From contig JAUYIW010000029.1 in NCBI GenBank assembly GCA_030688135.1, positions 1 through 38,603 on the forward strand: a DNA stretch of 38,603 nt. The letters run 5' to 3'. The DNA comes from Candidatus Uhrbacteria bacterium (GTDB taxonomy: Bacteria > Patescibacteriota > Patescibacteriia > UBA9934). The notes under the pieces were generated by a model. It was not told the origin of the DNA. It worked only from the letters and a program-made list of their open reading frames with translations, and did no database searches. This document shows positions 12,831 through 30,729 of the stretch, piece after piece. Made by a program: the position numbers and the translations under genes. Positions within the stretch are counted from its first letter, which is position 1; every line of letters starts with the position of its first letter.

Positions 12831-13097
12831 CTAGGCTTCGTTTCGTTCGGTCATTGGACGAGCTTCAGACACTGTAATAGTGCGTCCGCCCATTTCTGCT
12901 CCGTTCAGCGCGTTAATGGCAGCTGCAGCACCTGCATCATCTGCCATCTCCACGAAGCCAAAACCTCGGCTACGGCCAGTAAATTTGTCGGTGATAATTC
13001 TCGCCGAAGTTACCTCGCCGTGCTGACTGAACAGGTCTCGTAGTTCGTCTTCCGTGCTTTGAAACGGAATTCCACCTACGTAGAGCTTGTTACTCAT
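12831..13097 (-). CDS. RRM-type RNA-binding protein
   Basis: RNP2 motif LYVGGI and RNP1 motif RGFGFVEM. Confidence 0.9.
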   Translation of the reverse strand: MSNKLYVGGIPFQSTEDELRDLFSQHGEVTSARIITDKFTGRSRGFGFVEMADDAGAAAAINALNGAEMGGRTITVSEARPMTERNEA

Positions 13098-22846: not shown

Positions 22847-22876
22847 ATTGACAAAAAGACCTTTAATATGCTATAT
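22847..22876 (+). promoter_or_regulatory. Promoter TTGACA-18-(TGc)TATATT
   Basis: TTGACA at 22847-22852, TGC at 22868-22870 and TATATT at 22871-22876. Confidence 0.5.
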
Positions 22877-22885
22877 TTAAAATAA

Positions 22886-23032
22886 TATGTTTGAAACAAA
22901 TAGCCCAGAAGTTAAAGAAAACAGTAGGAAAAGAAGAATTTGGGAGCAAATGCACCCAGATCAGAATTGGAAAACAGGACTTTCTAAGGAACAAATTGAA
23001 GAAATTGAGAAGCAAAGAAAAACCGCCAGCTA
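22886..23032 (+). CDS. 48-aa orphan peptide (MFETNSPEVKENSRKRRIWEQMHPDQNWKTGLSKEQIEEIEKQRKTAS)
   Basis: Hand translation. The ATG lies 10 nt after the -10 box, and the stop sits in the loop of the terminator. Confidence 0.4.
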
Positions 23033-23048
23033 AGGCGGTTCTTTGTTT
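23018..23048 (+). terminator. Intrinsic terminator
   Basis: Hairpin AACCGCC-AGCTAA-GGCGGTT followed by CTTTGTTTT. Confidence 0.65.
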
Positions 23049-25867: not shown

Positions 25868-26563
25868 TTGGAGGATATGGAAAATGGAGTACTCTACATT
25901 GTTGCCACGCCTATTGGAAATGTGGAAGATTTGTCGCCCCGAGCAAAACGAACGCTCGATGAGGTTGATCTTGTATTATGCGAAGATACGCGTGTGAGCT
26001 CGAAACTTTTTTCAAAGCTTGGAATAAATACGCCTCGCGAGTCTTTTCACCAACATACCGAGCGGGAAAAACTTAGTAGATTCGTGGATCGGCTTTTGTC
26101 AGGCGAAAACATGGCGTTAGTTTCTGACGCAGGAACTCCTACGATTTCTGATCCTGGAGGCAAATTAGTAGCGGAAGCAGCGGCATCCAACATAAAAGTA
26201 GTTCCAATCCCTGGTCCAAGTGCACTTATAACTGCACTTTCGGCAAGCGGATTTCCATCTGACGAATTTACTTTTCTTGGATTTGCGCCAAATAAAAAAG
26301 GACGGAATAAGTTTTTTGCAAATCTGGCTTTGATTGAACGAACCATAGCAATTTACGAATCAAAGCACAGAATTATAAAAACTCTCGAGGCCTTGCCACA
26401 AGATAGGCGAATTGTTGTTGCACGCGAGTTAACGAAAATGCACGAAACGATTTACCGAGGACTTCCAGCAGATGTAATCAAACAAATCGAATCAACCAGC
26501 GCAAAAGGTGAGTTTGTGATTATACTTGCGCCTATAAGCCATGAGCTAAAAGCTATAAGCTAA
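25868..26563 (+). CDS. rsmI: 16S rRNA (cytidine1402-2'-O)-methyltransferase
   Basis: LYIVATPIGNVEDLSPRAKRTLDEVDLVLCEDTR. The likely start is the ATG at 25877. Confidence 0.85.
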   Translation: MEDMENGVLYIVATPIGNVEDLSPRAKRTLDEVDLVLCEDTRVSSKLFSKLGINTPRESFHQHTEREKLSRFVDRLLSGENMALVSDAGTPTISDPGGKLVAEAAASNIKVVPIPGPSALITALSASGFPSDEFTFLGFAPNKKGRNKFFANLALIERTIAIYESKHRIIKTLEALPQDRRIVVARELTKMHETIYRGLPADVIKQIESTSAKGEFVIILAPISHELKAIS

Positions 26564-26565
26564 CT

Positions 26566-28023
26566 ATGTCACGCTTCTACATTACTACCGCAATTCCATA
26601 CGTAAACGCTTCTCCACACGTTGGACACGCTCTTGAGATGTTACAAACCGATGCAACTGCGCGTTTTTGGCGATCAAAATTAGGTGAAGCCAATGTAAGA
26701 GCTCTTACAGGAACCGATGAAAACAGCTTAAAGAACGTTAGGGCTGCCGAAGTAATAGGCGAGGATGTCTCATCTTTTGTAGAACGCCATGCTGAAGAGT
26801 ACAAGGATCTAGGTTCGCTTCTAAATCTATCGTTTGATGATTTCCTTCGCACAAGAGAAGATCGTCATATTAAAGGAGCACAAAAACTTTGGGAAGCGTG
26901 TGACCCCGATGACATTTACAAAAAGACTTATAAAGGACTGTACTGCGTAGGCTGTGAGCAATTTTATACCGAAAAGGAATGTCCAGATGGCTTTTGTCCA
27001 GAGCACAAGACTGAGCTCGAAGTAATCGAAGAAGAGAATTACTTTTTTAAACTTTCAAAATATCAAAAACAGTTAGAGGATTTAATTGAATCTGATGTTT
27101 TAAAAATCGTCCCACGTTCTCGCAAAAATGAAGTTTTAAGTTTTATTAAAGGCGGGCTTGAAGATTTTTCAATATCACGCTCGCAAGAACGCGCCCGTAA
27201 TTGGGGTGTTCCAGTTCCGGCAGATGAAGGTCAGGTTATGTATGTTTGGTTTGATGCGCTCAGTAACTACATAACAGCACTTGATTACGAGGGCGACGGA
27301 GACTTGTACAAAAACTTTTGGCTAAACGATGATTCAACAAAGGTTCATGTAATAGGGAAGGGAATTTTGCGATTTCATGCAGTTTATTGGCCAGCTATGC
27401 TTCTTTCAGCTGGCGTACCACTGCCAAATGAGATTTTTGTTCATGGCTATGTTACTGCCGAAGGCGAGAAGATGAGTAAATCAATTGGGAACGTAATAAA
27501 TCCGAAAGAATTGGTTCAAGAATATGGAGTTGATGCTGTAAGATATTTTTTCCTGCGAGAGATTCCGTCTCATGGTGATGGCGACTTTTCAAAAGATCGA
27601 ATGGAAGAGCGCTACGCAGAACTTGCAAATCAACTTGGAAATTTAGTTGGACGCATAGCAACAATGAGCAATAAATATTTTGAAGGTGAGTTAGACAGGC
27701 CTGAAATGGAATTTTCTGAAACTTATCATAAGCTTGATGCCGCAATGAGCGATTATGATTATAAAAAATACATCGACACAGTATTTGAGATTGTTGCAAA
27801 TGCAAATGAAATGACCGACAAAGAAGCGCCATTCAAACTTGTAAAAATAGATCCAGACAAAGCAAAGCGCGTTTTGTCTCAGCTAGCACAAATGATTCGC
27901 GTAATTGCTAACGCCCTGCTTCCAATCATGCCAGATGCTTCAACGGAAATTCTACGTCGCTATGAGGGCGACAAGATTTTGATTGGAGACGCACTATTCC
28001 CAAGACGGGATGGAACTAAATAA
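26566..28023 (+). CDS. metG: Methionyl-tRNA synthetase (short form)
   Basis: PYVNASPHVGH (HIGH motif), KMSKS, and the CxxC...C..H knuckle. Confidence 0.92.
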   Translation: MSRFYITTAIPYVNASPHVGHALEMLQTDATARFWRSKLGEANVRALTGTDENSLKNVRAAEVIGEDVSSFVERHAEEYKDLGSLLNLSFDDFLRTREDRHIKGAQKLWEACDPDDIYKKTYKGLYCVGCEQFYTEKECPDGFCPEHKTELEVIEEENYFFKLSKYQKQLEDLIESDVLKIVPRSRKNEVLSFIKGGLEDFSISRSQERARNWGVPVPADEGQVMYVWFDALSNYITALDYEGDGDLYKNFWLNDDSTKVHVIGKGILRFHAVYWPAMLLSAGVPLPNEIFVHGYVTAEGEKMSKSIGNVINPKELVQEYGVDAVRYFFLREIPSHGDGDFSKDRMEERYAELANQLGNLVGRIATMSNKYFEGELDRPEMEFSETYHKLDAAMSDYDYKKYIDTVFEIVANANEMTDKEAPFKLVKIDPDKAKRVLSQLAQMIRVIANALLPIMPDASTEILRRYEGDKILIGDALFPRRDGTK

Positions 28024-28148
28024 GCATTCTAATGCAAATGCAATTCTATTTGCAAATGCGAATCAGATTGCAACAACTCTTAAATGCACTGAAAATTATA
28101 ATCTTTCCCCCGTTGCAACCAATAATTAGAATTTAGTATTTACGTAAT

Positions 28149-28649
28149 ATGGATTTCTCCTACATAGACATCGGGCTACTCGCAATTGTAGTTCTTTTCC
28201 TATTGAACGGATTAAGAAATGGATTCATACGTGCGGCCGGAAATCTAATTGGTGCTGTTATTGGAGTAATAGGCTCATGGTATGTAATGGTTTGGCTACA
28301 AGATAACTACTCGATTTTTAGCCATCCAATGTGGGCTGTAATCATTTTTGTTGGACTAATAATGGCGATGAGCAAAATTGTAGGATTTATTGTAGATATG
28401 ATAGATGAAGCTTGGAAACTTATTACAATAATACCTTTCTTAAAATCAATAAATAAGCTACTTGGAGGAATACTTGGATTATTTGAGGGTATTCTAATGA
28501 TTGCGGCGATCGCTTATTTTGCTGGATATTATTTTGCTGAAACTCAAATTGGAGTAGCACTTCTTGGTTCGCCAATAATTAGCTGGCTTGGGTTTGTTAT
28601 AAAGATAGTCGCGTGGTTAACTCCTAAAGTAGCCGTGATTACTTCATAA
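28149..28649 (+). CDS. CvpA-like membrane protein
   Basis: Four TM helices. The N-terminus DIGLLAIVVLFLLNGLRNGFIR is typical of the CvpA family. Confidence 0.6.
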   Translation: MDFSYIDIGLLAIVVLFLLNGLRNGFIRAAGNLIGAVIGVIGSWYVMVWLQDNYSIFSHPMWAVIIFVGLIMAMSKIVGFIVDMIDEAWKLITIIPFLKSINKLLGGILGLFEGILMIAAIAYFAGYYFAETQIGVALLGSPIISWLGFVIKIVAWLTPKVAVITS

Positions 28650-28651
28650 TT

Positions 28652-29515
28652 ATGAAATTCAGACTTATCGATACTCATACGCATGCGCATTTTCAAGCGT
28701 ATAGCAAAGACATGGACGAAGTTGTTAATCGTGCGCTCGATGAGGGAACGGCCATGATTACGGTTGGAACACAGTCAACAACAAGCAGAAAAGGAATTGA
28801 GCTCGCAGAGCGTTATGATGGCGTTTGGGCAACAATTGGACTTCATCCAAGCCACCTACACAAGCAGGAATTTTTTGACGACAATGAACTTCCGCCTGAA
28901 AAAAGAGTGACCGGTAAAATCAAAACTCGCGCTGAATGGTTCGATGCTGATGAATACAGAAAGCTAGCAGAGCACCCTAAAGTCGTAGCAATAGGCGAGT
29001 TTGGGCTTGATTATTTTAGACTGCCTCCAAATGTTGACCGTGAGCAAATGATTGCTGATCAAAAAACTTCAGTTGAGGCTCAACTTCGATTTGCTACCGA
29101 AGTGAACAAACCAGTTATTATCCATAGCAGAGACGCTCATGAAGATCAATTTGAAATACTAAAAAAGGCGCTAGATCGTGGAGACATACCTGAACTTGGA
29201 GTTATTCATTGCTTTACCGGCAGTGCAGAAGATGCAGCGCGGTACAAAGCGATTGGATTTTTGGTTTCTATTGGTGGGATTGTTACATTCTCAAAAGGAT
29301 TACAAGCCACAGTAAAAGACATCCCGCTCGAGCAAATAATGCTCGAAACCGATGCGCCGTATTTAAGTCCCGAACCAAAACGTGGAAAACGAAACGAACC
29401 AAGCTACGTTAAATATGTGGCAGAAAAAATCGCAGAGATTAAGGGCGTTAGCTTCGAGGAGGTTGCAGAGACTACTACAAATAACGCAATGAACTTATTT
29501 AAACTCAAAGTGTAG
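28652..29515 (+). CDS. tatD: TatD-family metal-dependent hydrolase
   Basis: LIDTHTHAHF, GEFGLDY, HSRDA and ETDAPYLSP. Confidence 0.88.
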   Translation: MKFRLIDTHTHAHFQAYSKDMDEVVNRALDEGTAMITVGTQSTTSRKGIELAERYDGVWATIGLHPSHLHKQEFFDDNELPPEKRVTGKIKTRAEWFDADEYRKLAEHPKVVAIGEFGLDYFRLPPNVDREQMIADQKTSVEAQLRFATEVNKPVIIHSRDAHEDQFEILKKALDRGDIPELGVIHCFTGSAEDAARYKAIGFLVSIGGIVTFSKGLQATVKDIPLEQIMLETDAPYLSPEPKRGKRNEPSYVKYVAEKIAEIKGVSFEEVAETTTNNAMNLFKLKV

Positions 29516-29556
29516 GTAGCGTTGAATCAAAGCAAGATTGGTGATATAAAGATTCT

Positions 29557-29750
29557 GCGGTGGACCATTGGTCTAAGAAACGTTGATGCGCAAACGTTAA
29601 GACGACTGTCTCCGGTCTTTGAGCGCTCGGAGCTTGCGGCAGGATTGTGGGGTCTTGCACACGCAAAGGACAGTAGATTAAGGCAGTTTCAGCTGTCTTG
29701 GGTCCACCGCACCTTCTTACCGCCACATTCGTGAGGCGGTACTTTCTTTA
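29557..29750 (+). ncRNA. Candidate structured small RNA A (unclassified)
   Basis: Promoter: TTGAAT at 29522-29527, 17-nt spacer, TGaTATAAA at 29542-29550. An 11-bp closing helix joins 29556-29566 and 29701-29711 and encloses several hairpins. Terminator hairpin TACCGCC / GGCGGTA lies at 29718-29741. Confidence 0.5.
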
Positions 29751-29786
29751 CTTGACAATATTATAAAATAATGCTTTAATTAAGCA

Positions 29787-29960
29787 TCCATTAGTGATTC
29801 TTGCTAGTTCTAACGTACGACGTTGGTAGTAGCAGGGCAATTAAGGCGCGAGACTGGAGGGGTTTCGCTTGTTACTTGCCTGAGTGCGTAAGCTGTTCAG
29901 CGCTCGAATCACTTTGGAAACTTGCCACCCGCGTGCTCTGCGGGTGGCATTTATTTTTTT
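29787..29960 (+). ncRNA. Candidate structured small RNA B (unclassified)
   Basis: Promoter: TTGACA at 29752-29757, 17-nt spacer, TGcTTTAAT at 29772-29780. The closing helix AGTGATTC (29793-29800) / GAATCACT (29906-29913) encloses three hairpins. A strong terminator GCCACCCGC / GCGGGTGGC at 29924-29948 is followed by a T-run. Confidence 0.55.
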
Positions 29961-30034
29961 CTATTAAGTATTCTTTTCTTTAGACCTTAATACATTTCTT
30001 TGACTAAAATGTTAAAAACTGATTCAATGTAGTT

Positions 30035-30199
30035 GAAAAGGGGCGCGGGGGCTGCGAGTAAATTGTCCAAGCGCATGCACTAGTTACTCAATCAATTCGA
30101 TTGGTTTGGTGCCACAGCTAGTGAATGTATGAGGTATCAAGGCTTACCGCGTCCCACCCTTCTGCCGCTAGATCTCTTGATTTAGCGGTATTTCTTTTA
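30035..30199 (+). ncRNA. Candidate structured small RNA C (unclassified)
   Basis: Promoter: TTGACT at 30000-30005, 17-nt spacer, TGaTTCAAT at 30020-30028. GGGGCGCGG at 30040-30048 pairs with CCGCGTCCC at 30147-30155. Terminator CCGCTA / TAGCGG lies at 30165-30188 and is followed by a T-rich tract. Confidence 0.5.
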
Positions 30200-30268
30200 T
30201 AGCCGTCGTTCTTAAAGGTTAAAGTAAGCCCAACCCATACGTAACAGTAGCGCATTTTTCAAACAACC

Positions 30269-30297
30269 TTGACCAAAATCAGAGTATAGGATATACT
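30269..30297 (+). promoter_or_regulatory. Promoter TTGACC-17-TATACT, candidate atp operon promoter
   Basis: TTGACC at 30269-30274 and TATACT at 30292-30297. The leader is about 170 nt. Confidence 0.5.
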
Positions 30298-30471
30298 TTT
30301 GCCGTTCTTTAAACCTATTATTGAATACTCACTTGAGTATAGAACTCGGAAAAACGAATAGATTTATTCAAAGACGTTGGTAGGAATACTAATAGCTTAA
30401 GAATAAATGTATCGAATTTATGAGTTCTAGACCAGGTGCAGTGCTCGACGATGGGTCTATAATCCATCAAC

Positions 30472-30729
30472 ATGGAAGAAAAACCTCAAAAATCGCAGTC
30501 TGACGCCTACTATTACAAGCTTGCATTTCGCATGGCGAGTGATTTTGGAGCAACGCTTGCGATACCAGCCCTAGCGGCAGCATACATTGGGGTTAAAGTT
30601 GACGAAAAATACGGCACCGAACCTTTTGCGCTTGCCATTCTACTAGTTATGGCATTCACATTTACTGCTGTATTTATTGTAAAAAAAGCAGTTTATTACG
30701 CAAAACTTTATGAACGCGGACCTAAGTAG
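30472..30729 (+). CDS. AtpZ/AtpI-like small membrane protein
   Basis: 85 aa with two TM helices, in the first position of the atp operon. Confidence 0.55.
   Translation: MEEKPQKSQSDAYYYKLAFRMASDFGATLAIPALAAAYIGVKVDEKYGTEPFALAILLVMAFTFTAVFIVKKAVYYAKLYERGPK

Follow-up and report, generated by a model that had tools for sequence, protein, structure and literature searches.

Three Putative Genes for Structured, Non-Coding RNAs in the tatD-atp Gap of an Uncultured Patescibacteria Bacterium

Genomic Setting and Anatomy of the Units

The window analyzed here is a 38.6 kb stretch of DNA (40.8% G+C) from an uncultured bacterium of the Patescibacteria (candidate phyla radiation, CPR). Between tatD on one side and the atp operon on the other, it contains a 956-bp gap (29516-30471), within which lie three units on the + strand, here termed A, B, and C. 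Each comprises a promoter of the form TTGAnn-17-TGnTnnAAW, a G+C-rich body whose 5′ and 3′ ends pair in a closing helix, and an intrinsic terminator. Judging from these features and from the analyses below, the gap probably carries three independent + strand genes for small, stable, non-coding structured RNAs.

The gene order is M17 peptidase, glutaredoxin, AhpC, SOD, DUF3179, TP_methylase, MetRS, CvpA, and TatD, then the gap, atpI-atpB-atpE, and the remaining atp operon. This order is also present in relatives, and all relatives found for TatD and AtpB were metagenome-assembled genomes (MAGs) of Patescibacteria. No other gap in the window is as large, and a plausible small open reading frame (ORF) is present in each of the further large gaps that were examined. 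A layout of three same-strand promoter, structured body, and terminator units had been proposed by eye in the initial annotation of this region, and it was recovered by a pattern search, folds, a terminator scan, and a repeat search; the −35 box, 17-nt spacer, and TGn-extended −10 box ascribed to each unit were likewise found in all three.

29522-29550, + strand: unit A promoter (TTGAAT, 17-nt spacer, extended −10 box TGa-TATAAA; pattern search, sequence)
29556-29712, + strand: unit A body, starting at the predicted transcription start, with helix 29557-29566/29701-29710 closing three hairpin arms in a four-way junction (folds, −65.2 kcal/mol; inverted repeat; strand asymmetry)
29711-29719, + strand: unit A tail, ACCUUCUUA, single-stranded between closing helix and terminator, fitting the AC(N)CUUYU common to unit C and the relatives
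29718-29750, + strand: unit A terminator, UACCGCC...GGCGGUA followed by CUUUCUUU (fold, inverted repeat)
29752-29780, + strand: unit B promoter (TTGACA, 17-nt spacer, TGc-TTTAAT; pattern search)
29787-29920, + strand: unit B body, three hairpins inside a closing helix (folds, z = −6.82)
29923-29960, + strand: unit B terminator, 11-bp stem with 8 G-C pairs and a T-run (hairpin 29923-29949 called by the terminator scan)
30000-30028, + strand: unit C promoter (TTGACT, 17-nt spacer, TGa-TTCAAT; pattern search)
30040-30155, + strand: unit C body; closing helix kept in units C1 (locus L082) and C2 (locus L199) of a relative, interior not
30156-30163, + strand: unit C tail, ACCCUUCU
30163-30199, + strand: unit C terminator, 12-bp stem plus T-run (hairpin 30163-30190 called by the terminator scan)
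30269-30297, + strand: atp operon promoter (TTGACC-17-TATACT), given for context

Including terminators, the units measure ~190 (A), ~172 (B), and ~165 nt (C). In each, the predicted transcript start lies 0-6 nt from the closing helix, and the 3′ arm of that helix sits just 5′ of the terminator. In unit A, the 11-bp closing helix (29556-29566 with 29701-29711) pairs exactly as annotated, both in the fold and in the inverted-repeat search. Its terminator (hairpin 29718-29741 plus CUUUCUUU) was seen by the fold and the repeat search and missed by the terminator scan, because it has a bulge, which the scan disallows. The closing helix of unit B, AGUGAUUC (29793-29800) with GAAUCACU (29906-29913) plus UCCA/UGGA, surrounds three hairpins and is followed by a strong T-run terminator, in agreement with the initial reading. 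In unit C, GGGGCGCGG (30040-30048) pairs with CCGCGUCCC (30147-30155), with ACCC immediately next, and the fold reproduced both this end pairing and the annotated apex (CAAUC-AAUUC-GAUUG). Four-way junction folds were obtained for units A and B and for the relatives C1 and C2.

The gap lacks a credible ORF, as had been noted: the only frames are of 60-73 aa, overlapping on both strands and without a Pfam match at E ≤ 0.01. No tblastn similarity was detected between the gap and the protein genes found at the tatD-atp site of relatives, and we therefore rejected the possibility of a pseudogene remnant of those genes. Comparison of the gap with phages and plasmids by blastn returned nothing relevant, and scans of viral contigs with four patterns gave chance matches or none. 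An independent assembly of window positions 25871-29939 (L081, a Logan contig of SRR13727534) differs by one base only; since its sequence spans unit A and the greater part of unit B, the gap there cannot be put down to misassembly of a single contig. We also noted a direct repeat (GCCGTCGTTCTTAAA / GCCGTTCTTTAAA) at 30203-30216 and 30298-30312, which suggests that the start of the atp transcript may have been partly duplicated just 3′ of the unit C terminator and hints at possible growth of the locus via local duplication.

Statistical Support for Structured + Strand RNAs

Matches to the pattern TTGA-N16-TGNTNNAAW number five in the 38.6-kb window against 0.6 expected, a count that none of 100 shuffles reached, and three of the five are the promoters of units A, B, and C, all on the + strand. 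The terminator scan of the region similarly found four terminators where 1.0 was expected. Compared to dinucleotide shuffles, the minimum free energy z-scores of the folds are −3.59 for A, −6.82 for B, and −4.06 for C. The bodies have G+C fractions of 0.54, 0.49, and 0.53, respectively, against 0.20 for the promoter-bearing spacers and 0.41 for the window; G+C-rich bodies amid AT-rich spacers are a classical signature of structured RNA genes in AT-rich genomes.

The structure is also strand-specific. In all three units, the + strand folds are 14-20 kcal/mol stabler than their reverse complements and contain 6-10 G-U pairs, and the relatives' units show the same trend. This asymmetry points to structure at the level of a + strand RNA rather than a DNA palindrome. 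As in a stand-alone bacterial small RNA (sRNA) gene, units A-C have an intrinsic terminator, no coding potential, and a promoter of their own, the last of these predicted only.

Comparison with Known RNA Families

A search of the whole window against Rfam 15 gave no match at the gathering score or at E ≤ 1. When cmscan, the check proposed in the initial annotation, was run on 29400-30500 at E ≤ 10, the sole match was to sau-6072, a Staphylococcus sRNA (E = 2.6), on a terminator hairpin, and the units were not assigned to ordinary families. Rfam searches of the relatives' gaps returned nothing meaningful, and ARAGORN found 0 tRNA or tmRNA genes in the window, L082, and L199. Given these results, the units are not signal recognition particle (SRP), 6S, RNase P, tmRNA, or tRNA genes, which agrees with the lack of housekeeping-RNA signatures seen by eye.

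The individual candidates can be taken in turn. The initial annotation had considered divergent 6S-type or 4.5S-like RNAs, an idea that the searches did not uphold. For SRP/4.5S RNA, there was no RF00169 match at E ≤ 10 and no domain IV motif, and the likeness of unit C to 4.5S RNA reduces to a GC-rich terminal helix followed by ACCC. For 6S RNA, there was no RF00013 match at E ≤ 10, and units A and B and the unit C relatives C1 and C2 are branched four-way junctions, not rods. RNase P RNA was rejected in the absence of an Rfam match and with units of 120-160 nt, and tRNA or tmRNA by the ARAGORN result. A known riboswitch class was rejected as well: there is no Rfam match, units A and B are each followed by a further promoter, and the atp operon is served by a conserved promoter of its own. 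Finally, the units do not resemble a miniature inverted-repeat transposable element (MITE) or other element with terminal inverted repeats, having no paralogues in the window, unrelated interiors, no visible flanking duplication, and strand-specific structure. Units A-C are outside every curated family, including SRP/4.5S, 6S, RNase P, tmRNA, Y RNA, and the known riboswitches. A reading in which they belong to no known family is reasonable as far as Rfam is concerned; the new RNA classes entertained in the initial annotation are a tentative proposal, with conservation confined to three assemblies.

Relatives of the Units

The closest TatD relative (76% identical) is encoded on contig JBDRFP010000006.1 of GCA_043818555.1 (locus L082), where tatD is followed by a 1,019-bp gene-free gap. 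A search with AtpB led to a neighboring contig in the same assembly (L199), which shares a 141-nt end overlap with L082. In this assembly, gap 1 separates tatD from an orphan 320-aa gene, and gap 2 (935 bp) separates that gene from atpI; both gaps are gene-free and punctuated by promoters and terminators, like the gap in the window. The orphan protein had no homologue among 5.8 billion proteins and no Pfam or PHROG match, and therefore provided no protein lead.

Two C-like units are present in GCA_043818555.1, C1 (L082 7224-7357) and C2 (L199 465-589), each following a promoter, starting with GGGACGCGGRG, and ending with CUCCGCGUCCCA. Promoter, closing helix (GGGACGCGGRG/CUCCGCGUCCC), and tail are nearly identical between C1 and C2. 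Unit C of the window shares this closing helix, with G-U replacing A-U, as well as the promoter position and a similar tail. Compared in either orientation, the interiors of these three units show no relationship to one another, and we accordingly rejected flipped copies of an invertible segment. Near-invariant ends around unrelated interiors argue for selection on the ends only.

Within ~20 nt of both C1 and C2 lies a second closed domain (AUCGGCUGUGGUGUAAUG...CCAGUCGAU; T1 and T2), followed by terminators and a TTAACC/GGTTAA palindrome. These T units (~185 nt) constitute a second RNA family, in which the ends are conserved and the interior has diverged; it is absent from the window. The orphan gene is flanked by a segmental duplication (L082 7180-7880 and L199 420-1146) comprising promoter, C unit, T unit, terminator, and a AACTTAACC...GGTTAAGGAT palindrome.

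A covariance model built from the three C units (R3; window C, C1, and C2) identified a short C-like domain, X2, at L199 791-880 (E = 0.011), and the lone unit between tatD and atpI of GCA_035092285.1 (L322 1729-1875; E = 0.009 in a 2.6-kb search). The latter has a promoter (TTGACA/TGa-TCAAAT), a 12-bp closing helix (GCGUGGCGGUAG/CUACCGCUACGC), an ACUCUUU tail, a terminator, and a fold z-score of −4.5. C-like units thus occur in two other Patescibacteria assemblies. The tails after the closing helix compare as follows:

Window unit A: AC-CUUCUUA
Window unit C: AC-CCUUCU
C2: AC-ACUUCU
X2: AAC-ACUUCU
L322 unit: AC-UCUUU
C1: AU-UCUUUCC

An exact CAC(N)CUUCU tail directly 3′ of the closing helix is found in units A and C and in C2. 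Units A and C appear to form one loose family with C1, C2, X2, and the L322 unit, marked by a GC-rich closing helix (GCGG/CCGC core) and an AC(N)CUUYU tail, with interiors that vary freely. In this proposed design, a closing helix of at least 9 bp would sit at the transcript start, and the tail would be followed by a terminator or the next domain. Unit A is linked to the family by the exact tail motif and weak, architecture-level cross-matches only.

Unit B, for which neither sequence comparison nor covariance-model searches detected a relative, is a separate orphan RNA. With single-sequence models of A and B, C2 was a top heterologous + strand match (E = 0.065 and 0.24, respectively), which says only that these RNAs share a four-way-junction layout. 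A metagenome scan with the motif CTTGCRCACGMAAAGGMCAG returned 12 matches, all of them chance, with a pattern that covers window-like variants only (a one-base indel excludes A′, the first unit after tatD in L082).

Distribution at the tatD-atp Junction

Comparison of the units by blastn and nhmmer with 80 Patescibacteria tatD loci returned nothing. In the loci of five relatives, tatD is followed by atpI after 14-110 bp; of the other junctions, one contains a GATase gene and another a 405-aa gene, while L201 has orphan genes upstream of atp. Viewed across L083, L086, L088, L092, L201, L202, and L322, the junction is a hotspot of changing gene content: among relatives with 66-72% TatD identity, it may be empty or be occupied by a GATase gene, by a 405-aa gene, by orphan genes, or by a lone RNA unit. 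The RNA cluster is a lineage-specific insertion at this variable junction and not a universal housekeeping locus, and its absence from most relatives argues against a universal housekeeping role. The possibility raised at the outset, that the region is unconserved, is therefore partly borne out: C-like units exist in other assemblies, the locus is absent from most relatives, and A and B have no significant homologue.

The atp promoter (TTGACC-17-TATACT-TTTGCCGTTCT) is conserved in relatives with or without RNA units, and its retention in those that lack the cluster argues against the units being required atp leaders. Downstream of this promoter, the atp leader of the window (30304-30480) forms one long, AT-rich, near-perfect hairpin (~145 nt, −58 kcal/mol, z = −7.6), compared to leaders of ~30-50 nt in the three relatives checked (L199, L200, and L201). 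Lying between the atp promoter and atpI, the hairpin has the appearance of a palindromic insertion or of an RNase III-type site.

Elsewhere in the window, positions 22848-23043 carry a strong + strand promoter (TTGACA-18-TATATT with TG), an ORF for a basic product of 48 aa (22887-23033), and a terminator that works in both directions (23018-23043), which together probably make up a gene for a small protein rather than for an RNA.

Interpretation and Alternative Explanations

If units A-C are RNA genes, transcription of each would be driven by its own sigma-70-type extended −10 promoter, and the 5′ end of the transcript would pair just upstream of the intrinsic terminator to give a closed multi-helix domain (a four-way junction in A and B). 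Both the transcription and the stability of the units we infer. The closing helix may shield the RNA ends from exonucleases, as in other stable RNAs, and the conserved helix and pyrimidine tail may be a site read by a partner, either a protein or another RNA. The variable interior would then be lineage-specific cargo or plain unconstrained sequence. Patescibacteria genomes are very small, and given this, it is unlikely that 1 kb spent on three strongly structured RNAs, each with a promoter of its own, serves no purpose.

No Shine-Dalgarno-like sequence was seen in the 25 bases upstream of 40 start codons in the window, and several starts lie a few bases after a TATAAT-like box, which suggests that translation in this lineage may be leaderless or Shine-Dalgarno-independent. 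Masking of ribosome-binding sites in the manner of classical sRNAs is consequently unlikely, favoring a protein-binding role. The unit tail resembles what we take to be the 3′ end of 16S rRNA (CACCUCCUU). A role of the CUUCU tail as an anti-Shine-Dalgarno seed is weakened by the lack of Shine-Dalgarno sequences in window genes. On the − strand, the window also encodes an 88-aa RRM-type RNA-binding protein (12831-13097; Pfam RRM_1, E = 8e-25), whose gene has a separate strong promoter (13206-13179); by general RNA-binding activity alone, one might speculate that it is a partner of the units.

Several observations weigh against three genes of this kind, or against their membership in a wider family. 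Transcription of units A-C is a prediction from sequence only. Among the relatives, the covariance-model links are weak (10-16 bits), and the AC(N)CUUYU tail, noticed post hoc, is not enriched (5 found against 2.25 expected window-wide). Compensatory changes affect 8/10 pairs of the closing helix, but the alignment was anchored on the helices, so that pairing is there by construction and is no proof of homology. In the closest relative, no sequence matches unit A or unit B significantly (p > 0.2), and A′ resembles unit A in position and architecture only; we rejected it as a sequence homologue, the similarity not being significant. Across 86 other Patescibacteria, 637 kb of tatD-locus sequence held no match to any covariance model, the single-sequence models of A and B included. 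At least seven relatives (66-72% TatD identity) have tatD adjoining atpI or other genes in between, and conservation is very narrow, confined to three assemblies.

This variability would also be expected if the gap were non-functional structured DNA, a residue of insertions or duplications at a site prone to recombination (MITE-like or decayed mobile DNA) and bearing fortuitous promoter- and terminator-like sequences. The changing content of the junction, the segmental duplication around the orphan gene in GCA_043818555.1, the unconserved interiors, and the long AT-rich hairpin inserted in the neighboring atp leader are all compatible with such an origin, which we nonetheless regard as unlikely. 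Decay in a 41% G+C genome should drift toward the ~20-35% G+C of the other spacers, yet the bodies have 49-54%, and G-U pairing makes their structure specific to one strand. Three promoters matched with three terminators, all on the same strand, greatly exceed chance expectation, and the closing helix begins at the predicted transcription start in all units. In the C family, helix and tail are nearly identical around randomised interiors, pointing to selection on the ends, and there are no multi-copy interiors, target-site duplications, or phage or plasmid matches. A cis-acting function, in which the units are leaders or attenuators (riboswitch-like junction aptamers with terminators) that regulate read-through into atp, would fit their co-orientation with atp directly upstream of it, as well as the position of the C-T modules upstream of a gene in both copies in GCA_043818555.1; promoter, P1-closed junction, and terminator is, moreover, the established layout of a transcriptional OFF riboswitch. 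Such a function seems rather improbable, considering that every unit has its own promoter and strong terminator and that the separate atp promoter follows the last terminator and is conserved in unit-less relatives, leaving atp expression with no need of the units. Neither a known riboswitch class nor, on inspection, a convincing anti-terminator pairing was found.

We think it very improbable that any of the units is a known housekeeping RNA (6S, SRP/4.5S, Y RNA, or a minimal RNase P) so divergent in this phylum that Rfam misses it. Their GC-rich paired ends are typical of stable housekeeping RNAs, unit C ends with CCCACCC, much as the 4.5S RNA of E. coli does, and the check for ffs, ssrS, and rnpB was confined to the window. 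Nevertheless, neither the gap nor the relatives' gaps matched a model of SRP, 6S, RNase P, or Y RNA at E ≤ 10, an SRP domain IV motif is lacking, and the units are branched where 6S RNA is a rod. The mutually unrelated C-family interiors are incompatible with a housekeeping core, and most close relatives lack the locus, at odds with the universality of housekeeping RNAs. That the units encode small proteins is extremely doubtful: the ORFs of 60-73 aa do exist, but they overlap on both strands, have TTG/GTG starts upstream of or within promoter boxes, include one that crosses a terminator, and show no Pfam match and no conservation in L082.

With three independent RNA genes as the preferred reading, a more specific proposal can be made, albeit one that we hold as a long shot: units A and C and their relatives might be a new modular RNA class of Patescibacteria, in which a "handle" (the helix and CAC-CUUCU tail) would serve a dedicated partner, while the interior of 50-135 nt would be swapped or fast-diverging cargo, and which would spread by duplication at variable sites. 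To our knowledge, the non-coding RNAs of Patescibacteria have been little explored, and a literature search on them found no paper relevant to the locus. If transcribed, the units would represent hitherto undescribed RNA families in a major branch of bacteria that is uncultured, and their conserved ends around a free interior offer a handle for seeking a protein or RNA partner. New sRNA genes in an under-studied phylum are predicted here by computation, with good support and narrow conservation.

Comparison with Known Systems

Likenesses to known RNAs are mostly architectural. With 4.5S RNA, the small SRP RNA of bacteria (RF00169), unit C shares the GC-rich terminal helix formed by both ends and the ACCC that follows; unlike it, unit C is without the domain IV motif or tetraloop, and its relatives are branched, with unrelated interiors. 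The units fall in the size range of 6S RNA (RF00013) and have a closing stem formed from their ends, but they lack the rod with its central bubble, match no 6S covariance model, and are not universal in relatives.

In architecture only, Y RNA and YrlA-type RNAs offer a parallel, having a conserved terminal-stem "handle" and a variable or modular interior that includes cloverleaf-like branching. The units differ from them in matching nothing in Rfam, and neither an rsr (Ro) gene in the window nor a Ro site of the bulged-helix type was identified. Riboswitch-terminated sRNAs (e.g., SreA/SreB and EutX/Rli55) resemble the units in their promoter, junction aptamer-like fold with a P1 helix, terminator, and absence of a downstream ORF; in contrast to these, the units correspond to none of the known aptamer classes and show no evident ligand or switching structure. 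Generic bacterial stand-alone sRNA genes have in common with units A-C a promoter, a non-coding body, an intrinsic terminator, an intergenic position, and a tandem arrangement, although the bodies of the units are closed multi-helix junctions with paired ends rather than short, seed-bearing RNAs.

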